Below, one piece after another: positions 815-10,400 of a DNA stretch of 17,559 nucleotides. Location: contig JBEKCB010000054.1 of NCBI GenBank assembly GCA_050015075.1, forward strand, positions 1 to 17,559, written 5' to 3'. The notes under the pieces are model-generated. The model was not told where the DNA came from, ran no database searches, and saw nothing but the letters and a program-made list of their open reading frames with translations. Both the position numbers and the translations under genes were made by a program. This stretch comes from Candidatus Brocadiia bacterium. Lineage in GTDB: Bacteria; Planctomycetota; Brocadiia; CAIUPP01. How positions within the stretch are numbered: position 1 is the first letter of the stretch; the number at the start of each line of letters is the position of its first letter.

Positions 815-1330
815 TCATTTCGCCTTCTTCACCGCCTCGATCACCGCGGCGTAATCCGGCTCGCTCGCGATTTCCTTGACGAGCTGGATATAGCGGATTC
901 TCCCTTCGCGATCCACCACGAAAACCGCGCGCGCGAGCAGCCGCAGTTCCTGGATCAGCACCCCGTACGCCGAGCCGAAAGCCGCCTCGCGATAATCCGA
1001 AAGCGTAATGACCGACTTGATTTCGTGGGCGCCGCACCAGCGCTTCTGCGCGAACGGCAGGTCCATGCTGATCGTCAGAATCTGCACGTCCGCGCCCAGC
1101 CCGGTGGCCTCCTGGTTGAACCGGCGCGTCTCGAGATCGCAGACCGGGGTGTCGAGCGACGGCACGGAGGAAATCACGCAGAGCTTTCCGCGGAATTCGG
1201 AGAGCTTCACCGGCTTCATATCGTTGCCCATCAACGTGCAATCCGGCGCCATCTGGCCGACCTTGACTTCGTTCCCCACCAGCGTCAGCGGATTGCCCTT
1301 CATCGTCACCGCCCCTTTGCGTTCGCTCAT
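815..1330 (-). CDS. tpx: Thiol peroxidase (Tpx-type atypical 2-Cys peroxiredoxin); possible upstream start at 1447
   Basis: VTMKGNPLTLVG, SVPSLDTPVC (peroxidatic Cys), SMDLPFAQKRWC (resolving Cys), LLARAVFVVD, EPDY. AAGGAG RBS upstream of ATG 1330. Confidence 0.95.
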   Translation of the reverse strand: MSERKGAVTMKGNPLTLVGNEVKVGQMAPDCTLMGNDMKPVKLSEFRGKLCVISSVPSLDTPVCDLETRRFNQEATGLGADVQILTISMDLPFAQKRWCGAHEIKSVITLSDYREAAFGSAYGVLIQELRLLARAVFVVDREGRIRYIQLVKEIASEPDYAAVIEAVKKAK

Positions 1331-1511
1331 GATCGGCTCCTTGGTGCCCTCAGCACCCGTTTCGCCCCGCCCTTCCCGCCTGCCGAGAAGAGCCACACCG
1401 CACAACGCCAGCGCCGCGCACACGACGAGCGTTCCTTGTGCCCGCATGACTGAAATCCCCATTGGATATGCTCGGCGTCCGACGCAACGCCCAATTCCCC
1501 TCGCTCAGCCT

Positions 1512-1655: not shown

Positions 1656-2465
1656 ATGCGGTCGCTGTACCGACTTGCCGCGCTCGCCGGCGTTGCGGTG
1701 ATGTGCATTTCCGGCATGGCGCGCGCGGAAGCGCCGGAGAAGATCTCGCTCAGTATCCTGTATGCGGGCAAGCCGGAGAGCGCGCGGGCGAACGACTTCG
1801 CGCGTTTCCTTCGGGAGCATTTCACCAAGGTCGAGGTGATGGACGCCGCGAAGTTCGATCCCGCGCAGACGGCGGGGTGCGACGTGGTCATCCTCGATTA
1901 CGATTCCGCGGCGAAACTGAAGCTGCCGCCGGACTACTCGAAGCCGACCCTGCTCCAAGGCGTCAATGGCGCGCACGTGGGCTCATCGCTCGGCCTGCGA
2001 TTGGGGTACTCCTGAGGGTGCCTCACCGATGCGGCTCAGTTTGAGCCGCCCAAACATGAAGTCTTCCAGAAGCCCTTCAAGGTCGAACCGCAGGTCGAAG
2101 AGCGCGATAAGCCGGCTTCCTACCAGAATTATCCTGCCGCCGCCAACCTTCCCGCCAAGCTCAAAGTCTGGCGTGTGCAGGACTCCGGCAAGGAGACTTA
2201 CGGCGCCGTCTCCGAGCCCTTCGCGAAGAACGCCCCTGCCGATTGCGAAGTCCTCACCGCCGGAATGAGCACACATAAAGGCCCGGAGCACATCTCGGTG
2301 GGACGACAGGGGAATTTCCTGTTCTGGGGATTCAACTCGCCGCCGTCGAACATGACCGCCGCGGGCAAGGCTTTCTACCTGAACTGCCTGGTGTACATCG
2401 CAAAATTCAACAAGCCGCCGATAAACCGCGCCGGCCCCGCAGGCGGCGCGCCGGCAACCCGCTGA
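1656..2465 (+). CDS. Putative exported selenoprotein, 269 aa, with Sec at codon 120 (TGA 2013-2015) in a U-G-C motif; function unknown
   Basis: AAAGGAG RBS at 1642-1648 and ATG at 1656. Signal peptide MRSLYRLAALAGVAVMCISGMARA. ORFs 1608..2015 and 2175..2465 share a frame, and manual reading of 2016-2174 shows no stop (LGYS-TGA-GCLTDAAQFEPPKHEVFQKPF...KVWRVQD). A SECIS-like hairpin follows the TGA and a terminator follows 2465. Confidence 0.8.
2031..2049 (+). promoter_or_regulatory. Candidate bacterial SECIS element
   Basis: GCGGCTCA-GTT-TGAGCCGC forms a perfect 8-bp stem. The loop begins with GU and is separated from the UGA by 23 nt. Confidence 0.7.
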
Positions 2466-3368: not shown

Positions 3369-4550
3369 TCACTTCGCCGCGGAGACCTTCGCGAGATAGT
3401 TGTCAATCGTCTCCTGGGCGTCGGAAATGCCGCGCTCTTCCCAGAGGCCGACGATCTTGCGCTCGCGCTCGGCGCTCTCGGGACTGTCGGAGGCGTGCGC
3501 GCCGTTCTTCATCAGGTCGTAGCCGTAGATGCTCCGGATGGTGCCTTCCTCGGCCTCCTTCGGGTTCGTCGCGCCGAGGCGCTTGCGGATTTTGTCAATC
3601 GCATCTTCTCCCTGATAGAGCAGCGCGACGCACTTGCCTTTCTCCTCGGGCGGCAGCGCGGCGCCCGTCTCGTCCTGCCCGGTCATGTAGTTGACGATCC
3701 GCCGGAACTCGAACTCGGCGTTCGCGCCCTTGATCACGTCGGTGATCTTCGTCTTCATCTCGTCGGTGATCGCGAAACCGAAGGTCGAGTGCAGCGCCTC
3801 GGCCGCGCGCTCGCCGGCCGGCTTGGCGAGCTTCTTCACGAAGATGCCTTGCAGCGGCCCATAGAATTCTTCGGCCTGCTCGCGCGTGAAGCGCAGGAGC
3901 TTAATTCCGACGATGAAGAGGCCGGTGCGGCTGAACATGTCAATGATGTTCCCCGGCCGCGCCGAGCGCCGGCCGAAACTGTCCGGCTTGATGATGACGA
4001 GCGTGGTCTGCACCTTGGAAGGGTCTTTGAACTGGACGACGTTCGTGAGCATGCCGCCGTCCTTTCCGGCAAAGTCGCTGAGGACCTGCAACTGCCGCCG
4101 GTTGGCCTCGTCGGTGGTCGGCATGAGCACGGCCGGCTCGAAAAATGAGAGCTTGCCGTGCGAGAGGACGAAATCGCCGTACGTGCCGCGGACGGTATCG
4201 CCCTTCACGTCCGGCGAAAGGTCGCCGATGACCTCGTCGCGCAGCGAGCGAATGGCGTTCTCGCCCTCGAAGAGCAGCAGGCACATGCGGTTGCTGATGG
4301 CGAACGGGTTATCGCGGCGCAGGTTCGTGTGGACGTACTGTTCCAGCGCGCCGCGGACCATCGGGCTGAGGTCCTCCGCCGCCAGCGTCTCGGCGTAGCG
4401 GTTCACCATCTCGTCCGACGGCGCGTACATGCGCGCGCCGACGAGGCGGACTCCCCTGCCGAGCGCCAGCAGGCGCCCGATAATGCCGCCGGTGCGGCTC
4501 TTCTTAAGCGTATAGGGCGTGATGAGAACGCAAGTCAGTTGTTTCTTCAT
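3369..4550 (-). CDS. ndk: Nucleoside diphosphate kinase-family protein with two tandem NDK-like domains
   Basis: The C-terminal domain has TLVIIKPD, RKRLGATNP..AEEGTIRSIYG..MKNGAHASDSPESAERE (catalytic His). The N-terminal domain has a degenerate NDK pattern (VLITPY, LLLFEGENAI, TVRGTYG). AAAGGA RBS before MKKQ. Confidence 0.85.
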   Translation of the reverse strand: MKKQLTCVLITPYTLKKSRTGGIIGRLLALGRGVRLVGARMYAPSDEMVNRYAETLAAEDLSPMVRGALEQYVHTNLRRDNPFAISNRMCLLLFEGENAIRSLRDEVIGDLSPDVKGDTVRGTYGDFVLSHGKLSFFEPAVLMPTTDEANRRQLQVLSDFAGKDGGMLTNVVQFKDPSKVQTTLVIIKPDSFGRRSARPGNIIDMFSRTGLFIVGIKLLRFTREQAEEFYGPLQGIFVKKLAKPAGERAAEALHSTFGFAITDEMKTKITDVIKGANAEFEFRRIVNYMTGQDETGAALPPEEKGKCVALLYQGEDAIDKIRKRLGATNPKEAEEGTIRSIYGYDLMKNGAHASDSPESAERERKIVGLWEERGISDAQETIDNYLAKVSAAK

Positions 4551-4573
4551 CGCACTTCCTTTCTTTTTTTCAT

Positions 4574-4613
4574 CATTTAGCATTCGGCATTCGGAAGTCG
4601 GCATTCGCCATTC
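4574..4613 (+). repeat. Degenerate 7-nt tandem repeat
   Basis: catttag cattcgg cattcgg aagtcgg cattcgc cattc, directly after the dnaE stop codon. Confidence 0.7.
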
Positions 4614-7600
4614 TTAGTTCTGTCCCCTGCTCCATCGCCCGCGCCCATTGCCGCTCGACTGCGCCTGGGGCTTGCGCGGGCTCAACTGCATGTGGCCTTC
4701 GCCGACCAGTCGGCCCATCTCCGCGATGAACGCCTCGGTCGGCCGCACGGCCAGCTCGCGTCCGGCCTTGACGAGTACGCGCTGCTGATCGGGCGCGACG
4801 ACCTCGACGAGCACCGCGCAGTCACCGCGATGCCGCTGGCAGAGCGCCTTGATGTCGTCCACGACCTGGCTGTTGAGCGCGGCGCGCTGCAGGCTGAGCT
4901 TGACCGCGCTCGCCAGCCGCGCCGGCGCCTCGGCGACCGGGATCAGTTCCTGTAGCTTGATTCCGGGGCGATCGCTGCTCTTATCCACCGTGCCGACGGC
5001 GAAGAGGATGGCGTCTTCCTTCAGCAGGCCGCCGTGCTTCTCGAAGCAGTCCGGGAAGACGACGCCGCGGATCGTGCCGGTGGGGTCCTCCATTTCGATG
5101 TGCGCCATGGCGTGACCGCCCTTCGTGATCGTCGGGCGGATGGAGATGACCTCGCCGCCGACGATGACCGGAGCGCCGTCGTTCAGGGACCGCAGCGTCG
5201 CCGCGGTGGCCGTGGCGAGTTGCGAGAGCACGGCCTCGTAGCGGTCGAGCGGGTTGAAGCTCAAGCGCAGGCCGAGCGCCTCCTTCTCATGGCGGCCCAT
5301 CTCGACCGGCGGCCATTCGGGAATCGGCGGCAGCGGCGTCTCGACGGCGCGCACGCCCGTGTCGCCGCCGAAAAGGCTTTTCTGGCCGCGGCGGCGGTCG
5401 AGTTGCGCGCGCGCGCCGCTGCGGAGCGCGTCCTCCAGCGCGGCGATCTTCTGCGCGCGGTTCCCGGGCAGGCTGTCGAATGCGCCTGCCTTGATCAGGC
5501 TCTCGGCCGCCTGGCGGTTGATCGCCGCCGAGTCCACGCGGTCGCAGAAATTCTGAAGCGACGTGAACCGCCCGCCGGCCTCGCGCGCGCGCACGATAGC
5601 CTCCACCGTCCGCTCGCCGACGCTCTTGACGCCGACCATGCCGAACCGGATCGCCTTCTCGCCGCAGACGGTGAAGAGCCCGCCGCCTTCATTCACGCAC
5701 GGCGGCAGCACCGTCAGCCCCATCTGCATGCAGTCGCGGACGTGCTCCTTGAGCCGTTCGCTGTCGCCCATCTCGCACGAGAGGTCGGCGGCGGCGAACT
5801 CCATCGGGTAATTCGCCTTCAGGTACGCGGTCCGGTAGGCGAGGTAGGCGTAAGCCGTCGCGTGCGCCTTGTTGAAGCCGTACTCCGCGAAGTGGCGGAT
5901 CAGCGCGAAGAGTTCCTCGGCGACCTGGGCTGTCATGTGCTTCTTCTGAGCGCCCTTCAGGAACGCCTCTGCGCGCGCATCCACCTCCTCCGAGCGCTTC
6001 TTGCTGATGGATTTGATGCAGCTCAGCGCGTCGGCCAGCGTCAGCCCGCCGAGCTCGTGGAGGATGCGCATGATCTGTTCTTGGTAGACGATCACGCCGC
6101 ACGTCTCCTTCAGGATCGGCTCGAGTTGCGGTGCGACGTACGTGACTTCCTTCTCGCCATGCCGGCGCGCGATGAAGTCGTCCACCATGCCGCTCTTCAG
6201 CGGGCCGGGCCGGTACATCGCGACCACGGCGATCAGGTCCTCCATGTTCTCCGGTTTGAGCCGCCGCAGCAGGTCCCGGATGCCGGACGAGCCGAACTGG
6301 AACACCGCCTTCGTGTCGCCGCGGCCGATCAGCTCGTACGTCTTCGCGTCGTCGAGCGGCACCGCCTGGAGGTCCAGCGCGTGGCCTTGGCTGGCCTTGA
6401 CCAGATCGAGCGTCTTGTCCACGATCGTCAGCGTGCGCAGGCCGAGCAGGTCCATCTTCAACATGCCGGCCTTCTCGAGGTCGTTCATCGCGAACTGGCT
6501 CATGACGACGTCGTTCATCTTGCAGAGCGGGATGAACTCGACAAGCGGTTTGTCGGCGATGACCACGCCGGCGGCATGGGTCGAGGCATGCCGGGCGAGT
6601 CCCTCGAGCTTGCGCGCGTACGTGAGCAGCTCGCGGATGCGTGGGTTGCTCTTCTCGTCATTGCGGAGGCTCTCGTCCTGCTCGAGCGACTTCTCGAGCG
6701 TGGCGCCGAGCACGCCAGGTATGCGCTTGGCCAGCGCGTCGACCTCGCTGACGCTCCAGCCGAGCACGCGGCCCACGTCGCGCACCACCGCGCGCGCCTT
6801 CATGGTCCCGAAGGTGATGATCTGCGCGGTGTTGCTCTCGCCGTATTTCTCGCGCAGGTAATGGATCACTTCCTCGCGGCGGATTTCGCACAGGTCGAGA
6901 TCGAGGTCCGGCGGCTCGCGCCGCTGCGGGTCCAGCGCGCGCTCGAAGATCAGCGAGTAGCGGATTGGGTCCACGTCGGAGATATCCAGCACGTAGGCCA
7001 CCAGCGTGCTGGCGCACGACCCGCGCAGGCCGACCGGAATGCCGCGCCTCCGCGCGAACGCGACGATGTCCCAGCCGATCAGGAAGTAGCTGCTGTAGCC
7101 CATCTTCTCGATCACGCCGAGTTCGTAGTCCAGCCGCTTCTTCGCCGCCGGCGCCGACGCGCCATAGCGACGCTTGAGCCCTTCTTCGCAGAGTTTTCGC
7201 AGGTATTCACCCGCGGAGAGGCCGTCCGGCGGCGTGTAGCGCGGGAAATTGCGCGTTTCGAAATCGAAAGCCACATTGCAGCGTTCCGCGATCACTACGC
7301 TGTTCTCGATCGCGCGAGGCAGGTGGCCGAACCGCGCCGCCATCTCCGCGCCGGTCTTGAAATAGAACTCCTTCGAGCCGAAGCGCATCCGCCCTTCATC
7401 GGCGAGCGTCTTACCTGTGTTGATGCAGAGCAGCACCTCGTGCGCGGCCGCGTCGTCGGGCGCGCCGTAATGGATGTCGTTCGTCGCGACCATCTCCAGC
7501 CCCGCCTCCGACGCCACGCGCGCGAGCCCTTCCAGGCACGCCTTCTGCTCCGGCAGCCCGTTGTCCTGCATCTCGATGAAGAAATTCTCCTTGCCCAGGA

Positions 7601-8105
7601 GGTCCGCGTAGCGCCCCGCCGCCGCGAGCGCTTCGCGCGGCTTCCCCGCCAGCAGCCACTGGCAGATTTCGCCGCTGTTGCAGCCGCTCATCACAATCAG
7701 GCCGTCCTTGTGCTCTTGGAGCAGCTCCACGTCAATCCGCGGGCGGTAATAGAAGCCGTCGAGGAAGGCGCTGGAGGCGAGTTTCACCAGGTTATGGTAT
7801 CCGCGAATATCAGCCGCGAGCAGCGTCAGGTGATTGTACGCCTCCTTGCCGCCGCCGGCGGACTGCTTGTCCTTGCGGCTGCCGGGCGCGACGTAGGCCT
7901 CGTAGCCGATGATCGGCTTGATCCCCGCGCCGGTCATCGCCCGATAGAACTGGATCGCGCCGTAGAGATTCCCGTGGTCGGTCAGCGCGCAGGCCTTCAT
8001 CCGCTGCGCCTTCGCCAGCTTCGCCAGACTCGCCGGCGTGCAAGCGCCGTCGAGCAGGCTGAAGTGGCTGTGAACGTGCAGGTGAACGAATTCTTTAGGA
8101 TTCAT
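4614..8105 (-). CDS. dnaE: DNA polymerase III alpha subunit
   Basis: PHP domain (HLHVHSHFSLLDG, TDHG, TNDIHY), PDLDLD, STHAAGVVI, KMDLLGLRTLT, YRPGP, IVYQEQIM, YGFNKAHA and a C-terminal OB fold; 1163 aa. Confidence 0.98.
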   Translation of the reverse strand: MNPKEFVHLHVHSHFSLLDGACTPASLAKLAKAQRMKACALTDHGNLYGAIQFYRAMTGAGIKPIIGYEAYVAPGSRKDKQSAGGGKEAYNHLTLLAADIRGYHNLVKLASSAFLDGFYYRPRIDVELLQEHKDGLIVMSGCNSGEICQWLLAGKPREALAAAGRYADLLGKENFFIEMQDNGLPEQKACLEGLARVASEAGLEMVATNDIHYGAPDDAAAHEVLLCINTGKTLADEGRMRFGSKEFYFKTGAEMAARFGHLPRAIENSVVIAERCNVAFDFETRNFPRYTPPDGLSAGEYLRKLCEEGLKRRYGASAPAAKKRLDYELGVIEKMGYSSYFLIGWDIVAFARRRGIPVGLRGSCASTLVAYVLDISDVDPIRYSLIFERALDPQRREPPDLDLDLCEIRREEVIHYLREKYGESNTAQIITFGTMKARAVVRDVGRVLGWSVSEVDALAKRIPGVLGATLEKSLEQDESLRNDEKSNPRIRELLTYARKLEGLARHASTHAAGVVIADKPLVEFIPLCKMNDVVMSQFAMNDLEKAGMLKMDLLGLRTLTIVDKTLDLVKASQGHALDLQAVPLDDAKTYELIGRGDTKAVFQFGSSGIRDLLRRLKPENMEDLIAVVAMYRPGPLKSGMVDDFIARRHGEKEVTYVAPQLEPILKETCGVIVYQEQIMRILHELGGLTLADALSCIKSISKKRSEEVDARAEAFLKGAQKKHMTAQVAEELFALIRHFAEYGFNKAHATAYAYLAYRTAYLKANYPMEFAAADLSCEMGDSERLKEHVRDCMQMGLTVLPPCVNEGGGLFTVCGEKAIRFGMVGVKSVGERTVEAIVRAREAGGRFTSLQNFCDRVDSAAINRQAAESLIKAGAFDSLPGNRAQKIAALEDALRSGARAQLDRRRGQKSLFGGDTGVRAVETPLPPIPEWPPVEMGRHEKEALGLRLSFNPLDRYEAVLSQLATATAATLRSLNDGAPVIVGGEVISIRPTITKGGHAMAHIEMEDPTGTIRGVVFPDCFEKHGGLLKEDAILFAVGTVDKSSDRPGIKLQELIPVAEAPARLASAVKLSLQRAALNSQVVDDIKALCQRHRGDCAVLVEVVAPDQQRVLVKAGRELAVRPTEAFIAEMGRLVGEGHMQLSPRKPQAQSSGNGRGRWSRGQN

Positions 8106-8269: not shown

Positions 8270-9034
8270 TCAGGGAAAGAACTCGCTAAACATGAACTCC
8301 CGCCGCTTTTTGAATGCCTCGATATCAGCGGTGTTCAGCTCGAACCACTCACCCTGTTTCCGCTTCTGCCGGAAGCGACCGTGCCAGTACTTCTCAAGAA
8401 GGTAGGGCTGGTCAGTCTTGATCTCATGCCTCGGGAGAAGATCTTCAGGAAGTAGGATGCCAATACTCCTGCCTCTCCGGTCGGCGTCTTTTGCTTTGCC
8501 GATCTTATACAAGCGCAATGAGGGTGAATATTTCAGATAAACGAACCCCGTCTTAGCTACCGCTTGGTGTTTGGACGTCGTTGCCACAACGGTTTTAGAT
8601 ACTTCTCTTTGGAGCCGGCCCTCGCATAAAGATGCCAACGCCTTGTTGCCGGTTTTCTGGCTGAAATCCAGAAGCGCCACAGCTATTCCTGGCATACCGC
8701 CGAATCGCCTTCTGACCGTCTCCCAGACTGGAAAGCTTCGCTTCTGCCGCGCCTCCAAAGTAATCTCGTCTCGCACTGGGAAGTGACCTAATGTGGTTAT
8801 AAAGTCCGCCAAGTGACGTAGGAGCTCTTCGTCACTTTCCTTCTTTGTCAAGGTATTTGGCTCATATCCCGCTGCAGTAACGGCTTCCGTCCACCGCACC
8901 CAATATCTTCCCTTCCAAACTGATTCCTTGATCCGCGTAGCGCTTGCAAAAGATCGTTCGCCGGGTATCTGCCCGTCGTGAGTCTCCACATACTTCCGGA
9001 TTTCGTCCAGAATCTCCTGTCTACTGATGGCCAT
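8270..9034 (-). CDS. GIY-YIG-like (T5orf172/Mug113-type) nuclease-domain protein with N-terminal helical repeats
   Basis: C-terminal GFVYL...YKIG...RR...LEKYWHGRFRQKRKQGEWFEL matches the T5orf172/Mug113 pattern. The N-terminus has two units resembling homing-endonuclease-associated repeats (SRQEILDEIRK...W.EAVTAAG and SDEELLRHL...P.WETVRRRFGG). The gene is AT-richer than its flanks. Confidence 0.75.
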   Translation of the reverse strand: MAISRQEILDEIRKYVETHDGQIPGERSFASATRIKESVWKGRYWVRWTEAVTAAGYEPNTLTKKESDEELLRHLADFITTLGHFPVRDEITLEARQKRSFPVWETVRRRFGGMPGIAVALLDFSQKTGNKALASLCEGRLQREVSKTVVATTSKHQAVAKTGFVYLKYSPSLRLYKIGKAKDADRRGRSIGILLPEDLLPRHEIKTDQPYLLEKYWHGRFRQKRKQGEWFELNTADIEAFKKRREFMFSEFFP

Positions 9035-9158
9035 GAATTGGTTGCTTTCTCTTGGAGATCGGAGGCACACGACAGATCTTCATGCTTGACGCCACTCCTC
9101 ACGGCGGAACAAGAATCGCTACGCCGTCAGCATCCGGAAGCGTCATTTTTCGACAGGG

Positions 9159-9494
9159 TTACACTGATGGTCCAATACTTATTTCCATCCCTTCGCGCCG
9201 CGCGATGTCCAGAATGGGACGGCCTTCCTCCGTTTCCCACTCGCGCTCGCCGCAGGGGATCGGCTCGATGCGGTTGTCCGCCTCGCAGGTGATCTGCCAC
9301 AACTTTTCCACCAGCGGCAGTGAGTGCGGTCCGTCGAACTCAGGCGCGATGACCACAAGGTCAATGTCGCTCCATTTGCCGGCCTCCCCACGCGCATAGG
9401 AACCGAAGAGCACGCCGCTCTGCGAATGGATGCCCGCTCTCTGCAATGCGCTCAGATAGCCCTTGACGATCTCTACAATTGCGCTGTCAACCAT
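9159..9494 (-). CDS. Minimal nucleotidyltransferase (MNT) domain protein, putative antitoxin
   Basis: LFGSYARGEAGKWSDIDLVVI (GS-x10-DxD Pol-beta NTase motif); 111 aa; overlaps the 3' end of the HEPN gene. Confidence 0.9.
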   Translation of the reverse strand: MVDSAIVEIVKGYLSALQRAGIHSQSGVLFGSYARGEAGKWSDIDLVVIAPEFDGPHSLPLVEKLWQITCEADNRIEPIPCGEREWETEEGRPILDIARREGMEISIGPSV

Positions 9495-9850
9495 CGGAGA
9501 AACTCCTGGGCAGTTGCCAATCGCTGTTCAGCAGCCGGGCGATCCACTGTCACTTGCGCCATGTCTGGGTAACGGCCCTCAAGTTGAAACATATTGAATC
9601 TGCTCAGCCAAAGCTCCTGCTCGGGCAACAACTCAATCCCAGCCGTTTCAGCAAGTCGCAACAGGTTATGAATTTTCGGCGGGACCTGTTGCGTTTTCAG
9701 GGTCACGTGTGCCTTGAGCATCTTCTCGATGGCCAGGTGCGCGAAGAAAAGCCCATGTCGGAAACGCCCCTTCTCGCACAGCATCTCGGCAACCTCAAGG
9801 TCTTCCCGGCTGCCTGCCGTCCAGTAGTCAACCTGCTTCTGAATGTCCAC
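9473..9850 (-). CDS. HEPN domain protein (SaV/Sacsin-type), putative toxin partner
   Basis: YW...SREDLEVAEML, FFAHLAIEKMLKA, PPKIHNLLRLA, EGRYP. GTG start at 9850 chosen from the typical family length. Confidence 0.88.
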   Translation of the reverse strand: MDIQKQVDYWTAGSREDLEVAEMLCEKGRFRHGLFFAHLAIEKMLKAHVTLKTQQVPPKIHNLLRLAETAGIELLPEQELWLSRFNMFQLEGRYPDMAQVTVDRPAAEQRLATAQEFLRWLTAQL

Positions 9851-9936
9851 CGCGTTCCACCCCGACAAGGAATCGTAAGTCCGCCTGCGTATCCTTATCA
9901 CGCCAGTCTGTTCATGTCAACAATTCGATGCAGCTG

Positions 9937-10254
9937 TTACCTGCACGCCTCGACGTACCTCATTCGGAGGTCGTAGAGGATGGCGCTCATGAGCTTGGCT
10001 TCCTCGTCGGTCAGGTTGCCCCGCATCTTGTCCTGGAGGATCTGCAGGAGGTCTATGGAGTATTTGGCCTGTTCGAGGTCCACCTGGCGTTTGCCGGTCA
10101 TCGGGTTGTCGAAGAGGCCCAGGTTGATGAGCACCTGCCCGGCCAGGCCGGAGACGAAGGTCTTGAGGCTCGGTTCCGGCAGCGGCGCGCGCTCGGACTT
10201 CGGACGAGGCGTCGCCGGTTCGCCCGCTGCTTCCGGTTTCTCCTGCTCGTTCAT
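9937..10254 (-). CDS. DUF1844 domain protein
   Basis: LPEPSLKTFVSGLAGQVLINLG..NP.TGK..VDLEQAKYSIDLLQILQDKMRGNLTDEE..L...LYDLRMRYV. Confidence 0.85.
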   Translation of the reverse strand: MNEQEKPEAAGEPATPRPKSERAPLPEPSLKTFVSGLAGQVLINLGLFDNPMTGKRQVDLEQAKYSIDLLQILQDKMRGNLTDEEAKLMSAILYDLRMRYVEACR

Positions 10255-10283
10255 CAGCCACCGCCCTTCGACGAAAAATCGGC

Positions 10284-10400
10284 TTTTGCCACGGATTTCA
10301 CGGATTTCCACGGATTACAGGAAAACGAAATTAACGGCCACTATTGCCTTTGCAGTTCGTCGCCCGTAATCCGTGTCAATCCGTGAAATCCGTGGCAAAA
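10284..10400. repeat. Intergenic inverted-repeat element (MITE/REP-like) with 35-bp arms made of CACGGATT units
   Basis: TTTTGCCACGGATTTCACGGATTTCCACGGATTAC (10284-10318) versus the reverse complement of 10366-10400 gives 33/35 matches. Confidence 0.9.

Follow-up and report, generated by a model that had tools for sequence, protein, structure and literature searches.

A probable exported selenoprotein gene in a Candidatus Brocadiia bacterium points to a widespread family outside current selenoprotein catalogs

We analyzed a 17,559-nucleotide stretch of DNA from a Candidatus Brocadiia bacterium (phylum Planctomycetota; contig JBEKCB010000054.1 of assembly GCA_050015075.1), hereafter the window. 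Positions 1656 to 2465 of its forward strand hold a single reading frame interrupted by a TGA codon at 2013-2015. As the best explanation of the whole, we propose that 1656-2465 is very probably an exported selenoprotein gene, with a proposed seleno-thiol redox center. The comparative data indicate that the UGA at 2013-2015 is almost certainly decoded as selenocysteine (Sec; U120) by SelA, SelB, SelD, and tRNA-Sec, directed by a hairpin within the coding sequence at 2031-2049.

The original prediction, made from the letters alone, described a ribosome-binding site, an ATG at 1656, a signal peptide, and one frame running to the TGA at 2463-2465 that is broken only by the TGA at 2013-2015. Direct reading reproduced all of these features. 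A Shine-Dalgarno-like AAGGAG (1643-1648) lies 7 nt 5′ of the ATG, and the frame comprises 269 codons plus the terminal TGA. The 269-amino-acid (aa) read-through product is a short form consisting of the core domain only, and homologue matches span its residues 6 to 260 unbroken. Its N terminus, MRSLYRLAALAGVAVMCISGMARA|EAP, read by eye, has the n-, h-, and AxA regions typical of a signal peptide of the general secretory type; the predicted peptide is 24 aa long (1656-1727) and ends in an AxA cleavage motif. Once it is cleaved, the protein would, with little doubt, reside in the periplasm or cell envelope. The internal TGA stands in the context LGYS-U-GC-LTD, in which Sec120 is followed by Cys122 (TGC, 2019-2021), the invariant partner in a U-x-C or C-x-C motif. 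Codon bias persists past the TGA, as had been claimed: GC content at codon positions 1, 2, and 3 is 0.65, 0.46, and 0.85 upstream and 0.61, 0.48, and 0.77 downstream.

We compared the read-through protein with 1.84 billion representative proteins by using phmmer, which returned 685 matches at E ≤ 0.001, 311 at E ≤ 1e-10, and 18 at E ≤ 1e-30. Many matches cross both halves of the query; many others stop at query residue 118-119 or start at 122-126 because gene callers split the homologues at the same codon. Full-length homologues carry C-x-C opposite the U-G-C of the window, with N-terminal fragments stopping just before this motif and C-terminal fragments beginning just after it. Thus, Sec occupies a Cys position of a redox-type motif, which is what had been proposed for this gene. 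Scanning an alignment of 14 family members (A1) against one genome per species confirmed 414 relatives. The codon counts given here rest on the best 80 of these, and related loci are non-independent samples. The codon aligned to the UGA is TGA in 45 loci, TGC in 30, and TGT in 5, and no other codon occurs; Trp or another non-Cys residue was looked for in this column and found in none of the 80 loci. In each of the 45 TGA loci, the TGA is the sole in-frame stop. The genome of the window (G000) contains two further paralogues, on contigs C7 and C35, and a congeneric genome (G001) contains two copies; all five have TGA in the same alignment column. The second Cys, at +2, is present in 80/80 loci and in the 5/5 copies of G000 and G001. 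By this comparison, the recurrence of the in-frame TGA in 45/80 related loci and in both paralogues of the same genome is far beyond chance, and the conserved TGA that the original prediction had named as potential support is therefore found.

Alongside these counts, we noted that the C7 paralogue (L018, 457 aa) begins ..GGLTLVEMLVVVSVV.., which by eye looks like a prepilin-type N terminus rather than a classical signal peptide; no Pfam match at this N terminus supports the prepilin reading.

Within A1, C120, C122, and H134 are invariant, as are A127, P140, and P153, and H128 is conserved in at least 90% of members. As judged from the alignments, the family is marked by the invariant U/C-x-C plus invariant His134, Asp196, Glu198, Arg217, and Asn243. 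The family is not rare in the phylum: in 300 evenly sampled genomes, 29/29 matches spanning the N-terminal core had an in-frame TGA (its position within the alignment column was unchecked), and these came from 21 genomes, including that of the window, none of which had more than 4 copies. In a quick maximum-likelihood tree with 84 rows, the window fell inside a 24-row Sec-only clade (Shimodaira-Hasegawa approximate likelihood ratio test support of 98) that spans Planctomycetota, Verrucomicrobiota, and Lentisphaerota. Across the family, this tree requires at least 5 changes between Sec and Cys, at least 2 of which are forced by well-supported branches. A 168-aa fragment cut at its 5′ end (L041) was excluded from the tree, and L019 was excluded from alignments A2 and A4. 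L014 and L021, which encode identical proteins, represent one genome reached twice; the 50 Sec loci used below are thus 49 distinct ones. Separately, a 400-aa database protein (P0008) begins directly after the U-x-C, passes through a middle domain, and enters a second N-terminal core half, which suggests either a single protein with two cores in tandem or the joint reading of two neighboring Sec-form genes.

Gene callers yield exactly the pieces expected if two separate genes were present, namely, an exported 119-aa protein ending at TGA 2015 and a second protein starting at GTG 2175 or elsewhere; the corresponding fragments in the open reading frame (ORF) list are 1608-2015 and 2175-2465. We consider this arrangement very improbable. 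All Cys-form homologues run through the junction without a break, so the two halves are fused in each of them, as predicted. The 53 codons from the TGA to GTG 2175 are coding-like (GC by codon position of 0.68, 0.40, and 0.70) and conserved, and they include the invariant A127, H134, P140, and P153. Moreover, a terminator scan found none between the halves. Behind the true stop (TGA, 2463-2465), the terminator is the sole qualifying hairpin, in agreement with the claim that the only terminator follows 2465. This intrinsic terminator (2477-2525) has a 17-bp stem with 14 GC pairs and a loop of 5 at 2477-2515, followed by the T-tract GTTTCATTTT. The remaining three terminator-like matches in 1400-2620 have 5-bp stems, and shuffled sequence gave a mean of 1.3 such sites.

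Since a TGC or TGT Cys codon could also have mutated to TGA in a dead or dying gene, we considered whether the locus is a pseudogene. TGC becomes TGA by one base change, and Cys forms do exist. However, the same TGA recurs in 45/80 loci over three phyla and in all five copies of the two congeneric genomes, and the sequence past it shows constraint. In 10 chosen pairs, the ratio of nonsynonymous to synonymous substitution rates (dN/dS) past the TGA was 0.11 to 0.51; between the window and L014, it was 0.32 upstream and 0.18 downstream. These values indicate that the part beyond the TGA is under purifying selection. Together with the hairpin and the distribution of selA described below, they leave the pseudogene account with hardly any credence.

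We then compared the region downstream of the UGA with the bacterial Sec insertion sequence (bSECIS) model, for which the legend of Fig. 2 and the accompanying description in PMC13188914 give a 3- to 9-nt apical loop with G in the first two loop positions, a 4- to 16-bp stem, a distance of 16 to 37 nt from the UGA, and a minimum free energy (MFE) of −7.5 kcal/mol or lower. The window hairpin (2031-2049), GCGGCUCA-GUU-UGAGCCGC, agrees with the model on all four counts: it has a GUU loop (2039-2041), an 8-bp stem (2031-2038 paired with 2042-2049), 23 nt from UGA to loop, and an MFE of −13.2 kcal/mol. The same full agreement was found for 34/50 Sec loci versus 4/35 Cys loci, and hairpins at −12 kcal/mol or stronger were found in 30/50 Sec loci and 0/35 Cys loci. 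An uninterrupted stem of at least 6 bp with its 5′ arm ending at +25 to +27 was present in 32/50 Sec loci, in 0/35 Cys loci, and in 0/16 GC-rich Cys loci; the company of this stem at a fixed offset, where Cys loci have none, also argues against a pseudogene. Among the 24 Sec loci of the window-like class, 94.3% of stem cells are paired, compared with 28 to 46% in slid controls and 27.2% in the same columns of the 35 Cys loci. Compensatory changes occur at two pairs in these 24 loci (G-C to A-U in 5 sequences and U-A to C-G in 2). The remaining Sec loci use a second register, GGCCCAC-GGU-GUGG(U)GCC or AUGCGCA-CGGGA-UGCGCAU. The MFE of the whole region also differed between Sec and Cys loci (−17.8 versus −13.0 kcal/mol; p = 1e-4), but this comparison is confounded by GC content, and we therefore set it aside and replaced it with the position-specific hairpin tests above. 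An Rfam search gave no meaningful match, and none was expected for this SECIS.

The genome of the window encodes the complete Sec machinery, for which it was checked. Contig C13 carries selA (533 bits), selB (340 bits), and selD (365 bits), all above curated cutoffs, and selC in the form of tRNA-Sec(TCA). We examined the co-occurrence of selA for 50 of the 80 loci. It was present in 26/26 genomes with a TGA locus (23 intact and 3 frameshift-split), which is not what a decayed Cys codon would predict. Of 24 genomes with a Cys locus, 5 have selA and 1 has it in fragments; it was not found in the other 18, of which 15 lacked any match. In four genomes (G065, G066, G078, and G091), a single contig carries selA broken into 2 to 6 frame-shifted pieces; three of these genomes also hold TGA-form loci, which makes assembly indel errors more likely than gene decay. 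The selD match in G000 (C13:3632-4555, L010) sits in a 545-aa open frame, whereas the model has 311 positions, and this SelD may be fused to another domain.

The open frame could also be explained if TGA encoded a standard amino acid (Trp or Gly, as in genetic codes 4 and 25) or if the TGA were an assembly or sequencing error. Nothing beyond the open frame itself speaks for either, and we regard the chance of such an explanation as negligible. TGA is the stop codon of 5/7 checked neighboring genes, as had been stated, and this ordinary usage excludes an altered genetic code; the aligned residue, moreover, is always Cys and never Trp or Gly. A strict genome-wide screen of G000 yielded merely 9 candidates with an in-frame TGA, and 5 of the 6 outside the studied family are Arg/Leu-rich junk frames. 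A sequencing error is contradicted by independent assemblies: in two additional DNA runs, contigs (X7 record 9 and X8 record 14) cover 1815-2056, including the TGA, with zero differences, and a variant strain retains 2013-2015.

G000 also holds a 209-aa lipoprotein-like ORF (C18:90138-90764, forward strand; L103/L109) that is interrupted by an in-frame TGA (..NYVPS-U-MHVIHLG..) and has a hairpin like that of the window gene, with a GTT loop, 8 bp, and 23-nt spacing. Homologues occur in 13/41 related genomes, and the U of L109-L111 aligns with Cys in L112-L114; the ORF has zero Pfam matches. It is a likely second unannotated selenoprotein. A Sec-type formate dehydrogenase alpha subunit was not found in G000, where the best TIGR01553 match (151 bits) is under the cutoff and lacks an in-frame stop. 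Because the full Sec machinery is kept even so, the three family paralogues and the C18 candidate may be the major Sec users in this genome.

New bacterial selenoprotein families turn up regularly. For the protein studied here (P0001), no Pfam model scored above the cutoff (best E of 0.16), and there were 0 NCBIfam matches. Likewise, we found no NCBIfam match among the 14 members of A1 and no Pfam match on the core domain among the 92 members of A3. None of the 119 prokaryotic selenoprotein families and subfamilies in Table 1 of PMC13188914, each of which that table ties to a domain model, corresponds to it, as assessed by Pfam and NCBIfam scans and, for the few families with cd or PTHR models only, by the table alone. 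The same table includes the nine new families of deep-Sep (PMC12013277), and BSepDB, as described in PMC13326102, looks for previously reported families only. The view that the protein is unlike known Sec families is borne out by these comparisons, as is the expectation that standard annotation would split the gene, since the database homologues of the Sec form are truncated halves. In a collection of 5.8 billion proteins, all 70 relatives of similar length are post-TGA halves (43 to 55% query cover) that lack Pfam domains and carry either no name or that of "hypothetical protein"; elsewhere, database names of relatives are "hypothetical protein" or are taken from an accessory domain. We found no description of the family in the literature, although a member could appear in Table S2 of BSepDB or in the S9 table of PMC4807772, which gives candidate selenoproteins of two Planctomycetes. 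We think it likely that no earlier work has described this family as selenoproteins.

Members of the family occur in three architectures: the core alone (∼270 to 300 aa; the form of the window, L014/L021, and L032), the core with a helical middle domain, and the latter with an additional C-terminal DsbD_N-like domain. Sec as well as Cys versions exist in more than one of these. The core domain is ∼245 aa, and a hydrophobic 12-aa segment precedes its first conserved strand in 67/84 family loci (L041 again excluded), most misses being failures of the motif regular expression. DsbD_N is fused in 36/92 members and AhpC-TSA, Redoxin, or Thioredoxin_8 in 5/92, and across 32 long forms the two paired Cys residues of the DsbD_N-like domain show conservation of 90% or more. 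In the window protein itself, neither DsbD_N (PF11412) nor a thioredoxin-fold redoxin model matches; these domains occur only in longer relatives or adjoining genes. Separate DsbD_N genes adjoin L039, L061, and L091, and G000 contains two DsbD_TM genes. Using a hidden Markov model built from Bacteroidota TlpA-like neighbors and run over six-frame ORFs, which counts the TlpA-like subtype only, we found TlpA-like redoxin genes flanking 21/35 Cys loci and 2/50 Sec loci.

Of the redox and metal-binding functions suggested in the original prediction, domain fusions and gene neighbors favor redox, we infer, and the cycle we propose is drawn by analogy with envelope reductases fed by DsbD/ScsB. In those pathways (PMC3322552), a membrane DsbD-type transporter passes electrons to a thioredoxin-fold carrier (e.g., TlpA) and on to a terminal periplasmic reductase or peroxiredoxin. 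In the proposed cycle, Sec120 would attack an oxidized substrate, and Cys122 would resolve the oxidized intermediate into an Se-S bond. Re-reduction would run from a membrane DsbD/CcdA-type transporter through a DsbD_N-type or TlpA-like thioredoxin-fold carrier to the core domain, such carriers being fused to the core domain or encoded alongside it in other family members. We regard this mechanism as the most likely one, at somewhat better than even odds.

A different role is conceivable for a genuine exported selenoprotein of this kind: the U-x-C, with His134 (and His128 in most relatives), could bind a metal or metalloid (Cu, Zn, Hg, or selenium/sulfur species), as in a periplasmic chaperone or sensor. 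The C-x-C-x5-H-x5-H spacing is kept in most members, with C120, C122, and H134 invariant in A1 and H128 present in at least 90%. Table 1 of PMC13188914 lists a Cu/Zn efflux transporter family with a UxC motif as well as CopZ-like and MbdU metal-binding selenoproteins, and papers on Scs connect copper with envelope thiol reductases. However, His128 is replaced by Gln in the window and throughout its 24-member Sec clade, the recurrent fused or adjoining domains are thiol-disulfide carriers (DsbD_N and TlpA-like redoxins) rather than metal transporters or chaperones, and no metal-binding family model in Pfam or NCBIfam matches. We therefore consider a metal-binding role unlikely.

The fold gave few clues. 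In the Atlas model of the homologue P0011, residues 20 to 300 resemble GATase1 domains over 178 to 193 residues, with template modeling (TM) scores of 0.51 to 0.53 by query and 0.66 to 0.71 by target, and an Atlas feature search gave a ThuA cluster score of 0.87, under the bar of 0.9. Profile-profile comparison with hhalign gave probabilities of 0.1% for a single ThuA sequence, 0.1% for the pyrG GATase, and 0.65% for a 28-sequence GATase profile; against a 29-sequence ThuA profile, 29 residues of the β2-β3 region aligned at 12%. Since these profiles are negative or weak and the motif is L-U-x-C-L rather than a G-x-C-x-G elbow, we rejected membership in GATase1/ThuA by sequence and retained it as an Atlas lead only. 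A profile search of the PDB with A1 found nothing for the core domain and gave weak matches to DsbD-alpha (E of 0.44 to 0.65) for the C-terminal domain of long forms.

Several observations weigh against an exported selenoprotein with a redox center. The case for selenium incorporation, for the protein, and for its activity is comparative throughout. His128 of C-x-C-x5-H-x5-H is Gln in the clade of the window, and a Cys/Sec-x-Cys with His would equally suit a metal site. A strict reading of the bSECIS model fails for 16/50 Sec loci, in which the loop is atypical (AAGGC, for example) or the stem is bulged; for comparison, PMC13326102 reports canonical SECIS elements in 87.4% of BSepDB entries. 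The TlpA neighborhood is mostly one Bacteroidota operon in related, non-independent loci and is rare beside Sec forms (2/50). The form in the window has no fused carrier domains, and its sole redox neighbor, a divergent Tpx-like peroxiredoxin, possibly stands there by coincidence. The sole hint of a fold is the Atlas likeness of P0011 to GATase1, with the profile-profile tests at 0.1%, 0.1%, 0.65%, and 12%. Finally, two contigs from RNA libraries lie over the gene: X24 record 4 (1967-2284; 28 differences, from a related strain) covers the TGA, and X22 record 1 (2094-2321) is an exact match. These contigs do not prove transcription and give a weak hint of expression, and stretches of the gene that lack RNA coverage carry no meaning.

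With these points taken into account, an exported selenoprotein with a redox center remains our preferred explanation, and it can be extended tentatively. In this wider proposal, which we put forward as a possibility short of an even chance, the gene would be the first recognized member of a family of exported selenoenzymes that is widespread but undescribed and has a non-thioredoxin (possibly GATase1/ThuA-like) fold, occurring with Sec in Planctomycetota, Verrucomicrobiota, and Lentisphaerota and in Cys forms in Bacteroidota, and acting as a terminal acceptor of DsbD-type pathways. Such envelope proteins, not classical cytoplasmic enzymes, would then be the reason that Sec machinery is kept in lineages like this one, where there are three paralogues and one or more additional unannotated families of Sec/Cys lipoproteins and where a Sec-type formate dehydrogenase was not found.

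The family matters beyond this genome. Selenoprotein catalogs rely mainly on homology to families already known, and a family covered by no model is for that reason invisible in them and systematically misannotated. If the proposal holds, selenium use would extend to the cell envelope of bacteria of the Planctomycetes-Verrucomicrobia-Chlamydiae (PVC) group. These bacteria are common in peat, and the window stretch is present in peat metagenome runs. With its natural Sec/Cys pairs, the new scaffold offers a handle on why Sec is preferred, as well as a new model for annotation pipelines, and ordinary genetics could address the function through the Cys forms of cultivable Pedobacter and Mucilaginibacter.

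The divergent neighbor just mentioned (815-1462, reverse strand) encodes an exported Redoxin/AhpC-TSA protein (Pfam Redoxin, 101 bits; AhpC-TSA, 81 bits) with the motifs SVPSLDTPVC and RWCGA, which we take to be Tpx-like; the TlpA-like model described above does not detect it. This gene may be a redox partner of the selenoprotein or may be there by coincidence. Elsewhere in the window, a 411-aa open frame at 3369-4604 (reverse strand) has an NDK domain confined to its last part (best stretch, residues 322 to 384), and for this reason its true start is probably far downstream, unless the frame has an N-terminal extension. Beside dnaE (4614-8105), an ORF at 8270-9070 (reverse strand) matches T5orf172/MUG113 (GIY-YIG-like) and homing-endonuclease-associated HNH repeats and may be a mobile endonuclease gene. 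A HEPN-domain protein (56.8 bits) is encoded at 9473-9901 (reverse strand), adjoined by small ORFs at 9917-10261 (reverse strand) and 9928-10386 (forward strand); the HEPN gene and an adjacent ORF may form a HEPN/MNT-type pair.

Among known systems, the NF004836 family possibly shares the class I glutamine-amidotransferase-like fold class with the family described here, if the Atlas lead from P0011 is right. However, its model does not match, its nucleophile elbow is G-x-U-x-G rather than L-U-x-C-L, and it is a cytoplasmic-type enzyme domain, whereas the studied family is exported. The ThuA-like domain (PF06283) resembles the core in its Atlas cluster score (0.87, below the bar) and in the 29 residues aligned by hhalign at 12%, but there is no significant sequence relationship, and the ThuA matches in G000 are separate genes. 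To our knowledge, ThuA has no Sec/Cys-x-Cys motif. The selenoproteins with a close Cys pair in Table 1 of PMC13188914 are alike in having Sec for the first Cys, Cys-form homologues, an in-frame SECIS after the UGA, and a presumed thiol/selenol redox role. They differ in that their models match neither the window protein nor 13 natural relatives, while no sequence test shows the core domain here to be thioredoxin-like, and its invariant residues are a set of its own. With the DsbD/ScsB pathways (PMC3322552), the family shares export, fusions to DsbD_N and AhpC-TSA/redoxin domains, TlpA-like neighbors, and DsbD_TM genes in the genome. It differs from them in that the copy in the window is unfused and that the terminal acceptor would be a new domain with a U/C-x-C center.

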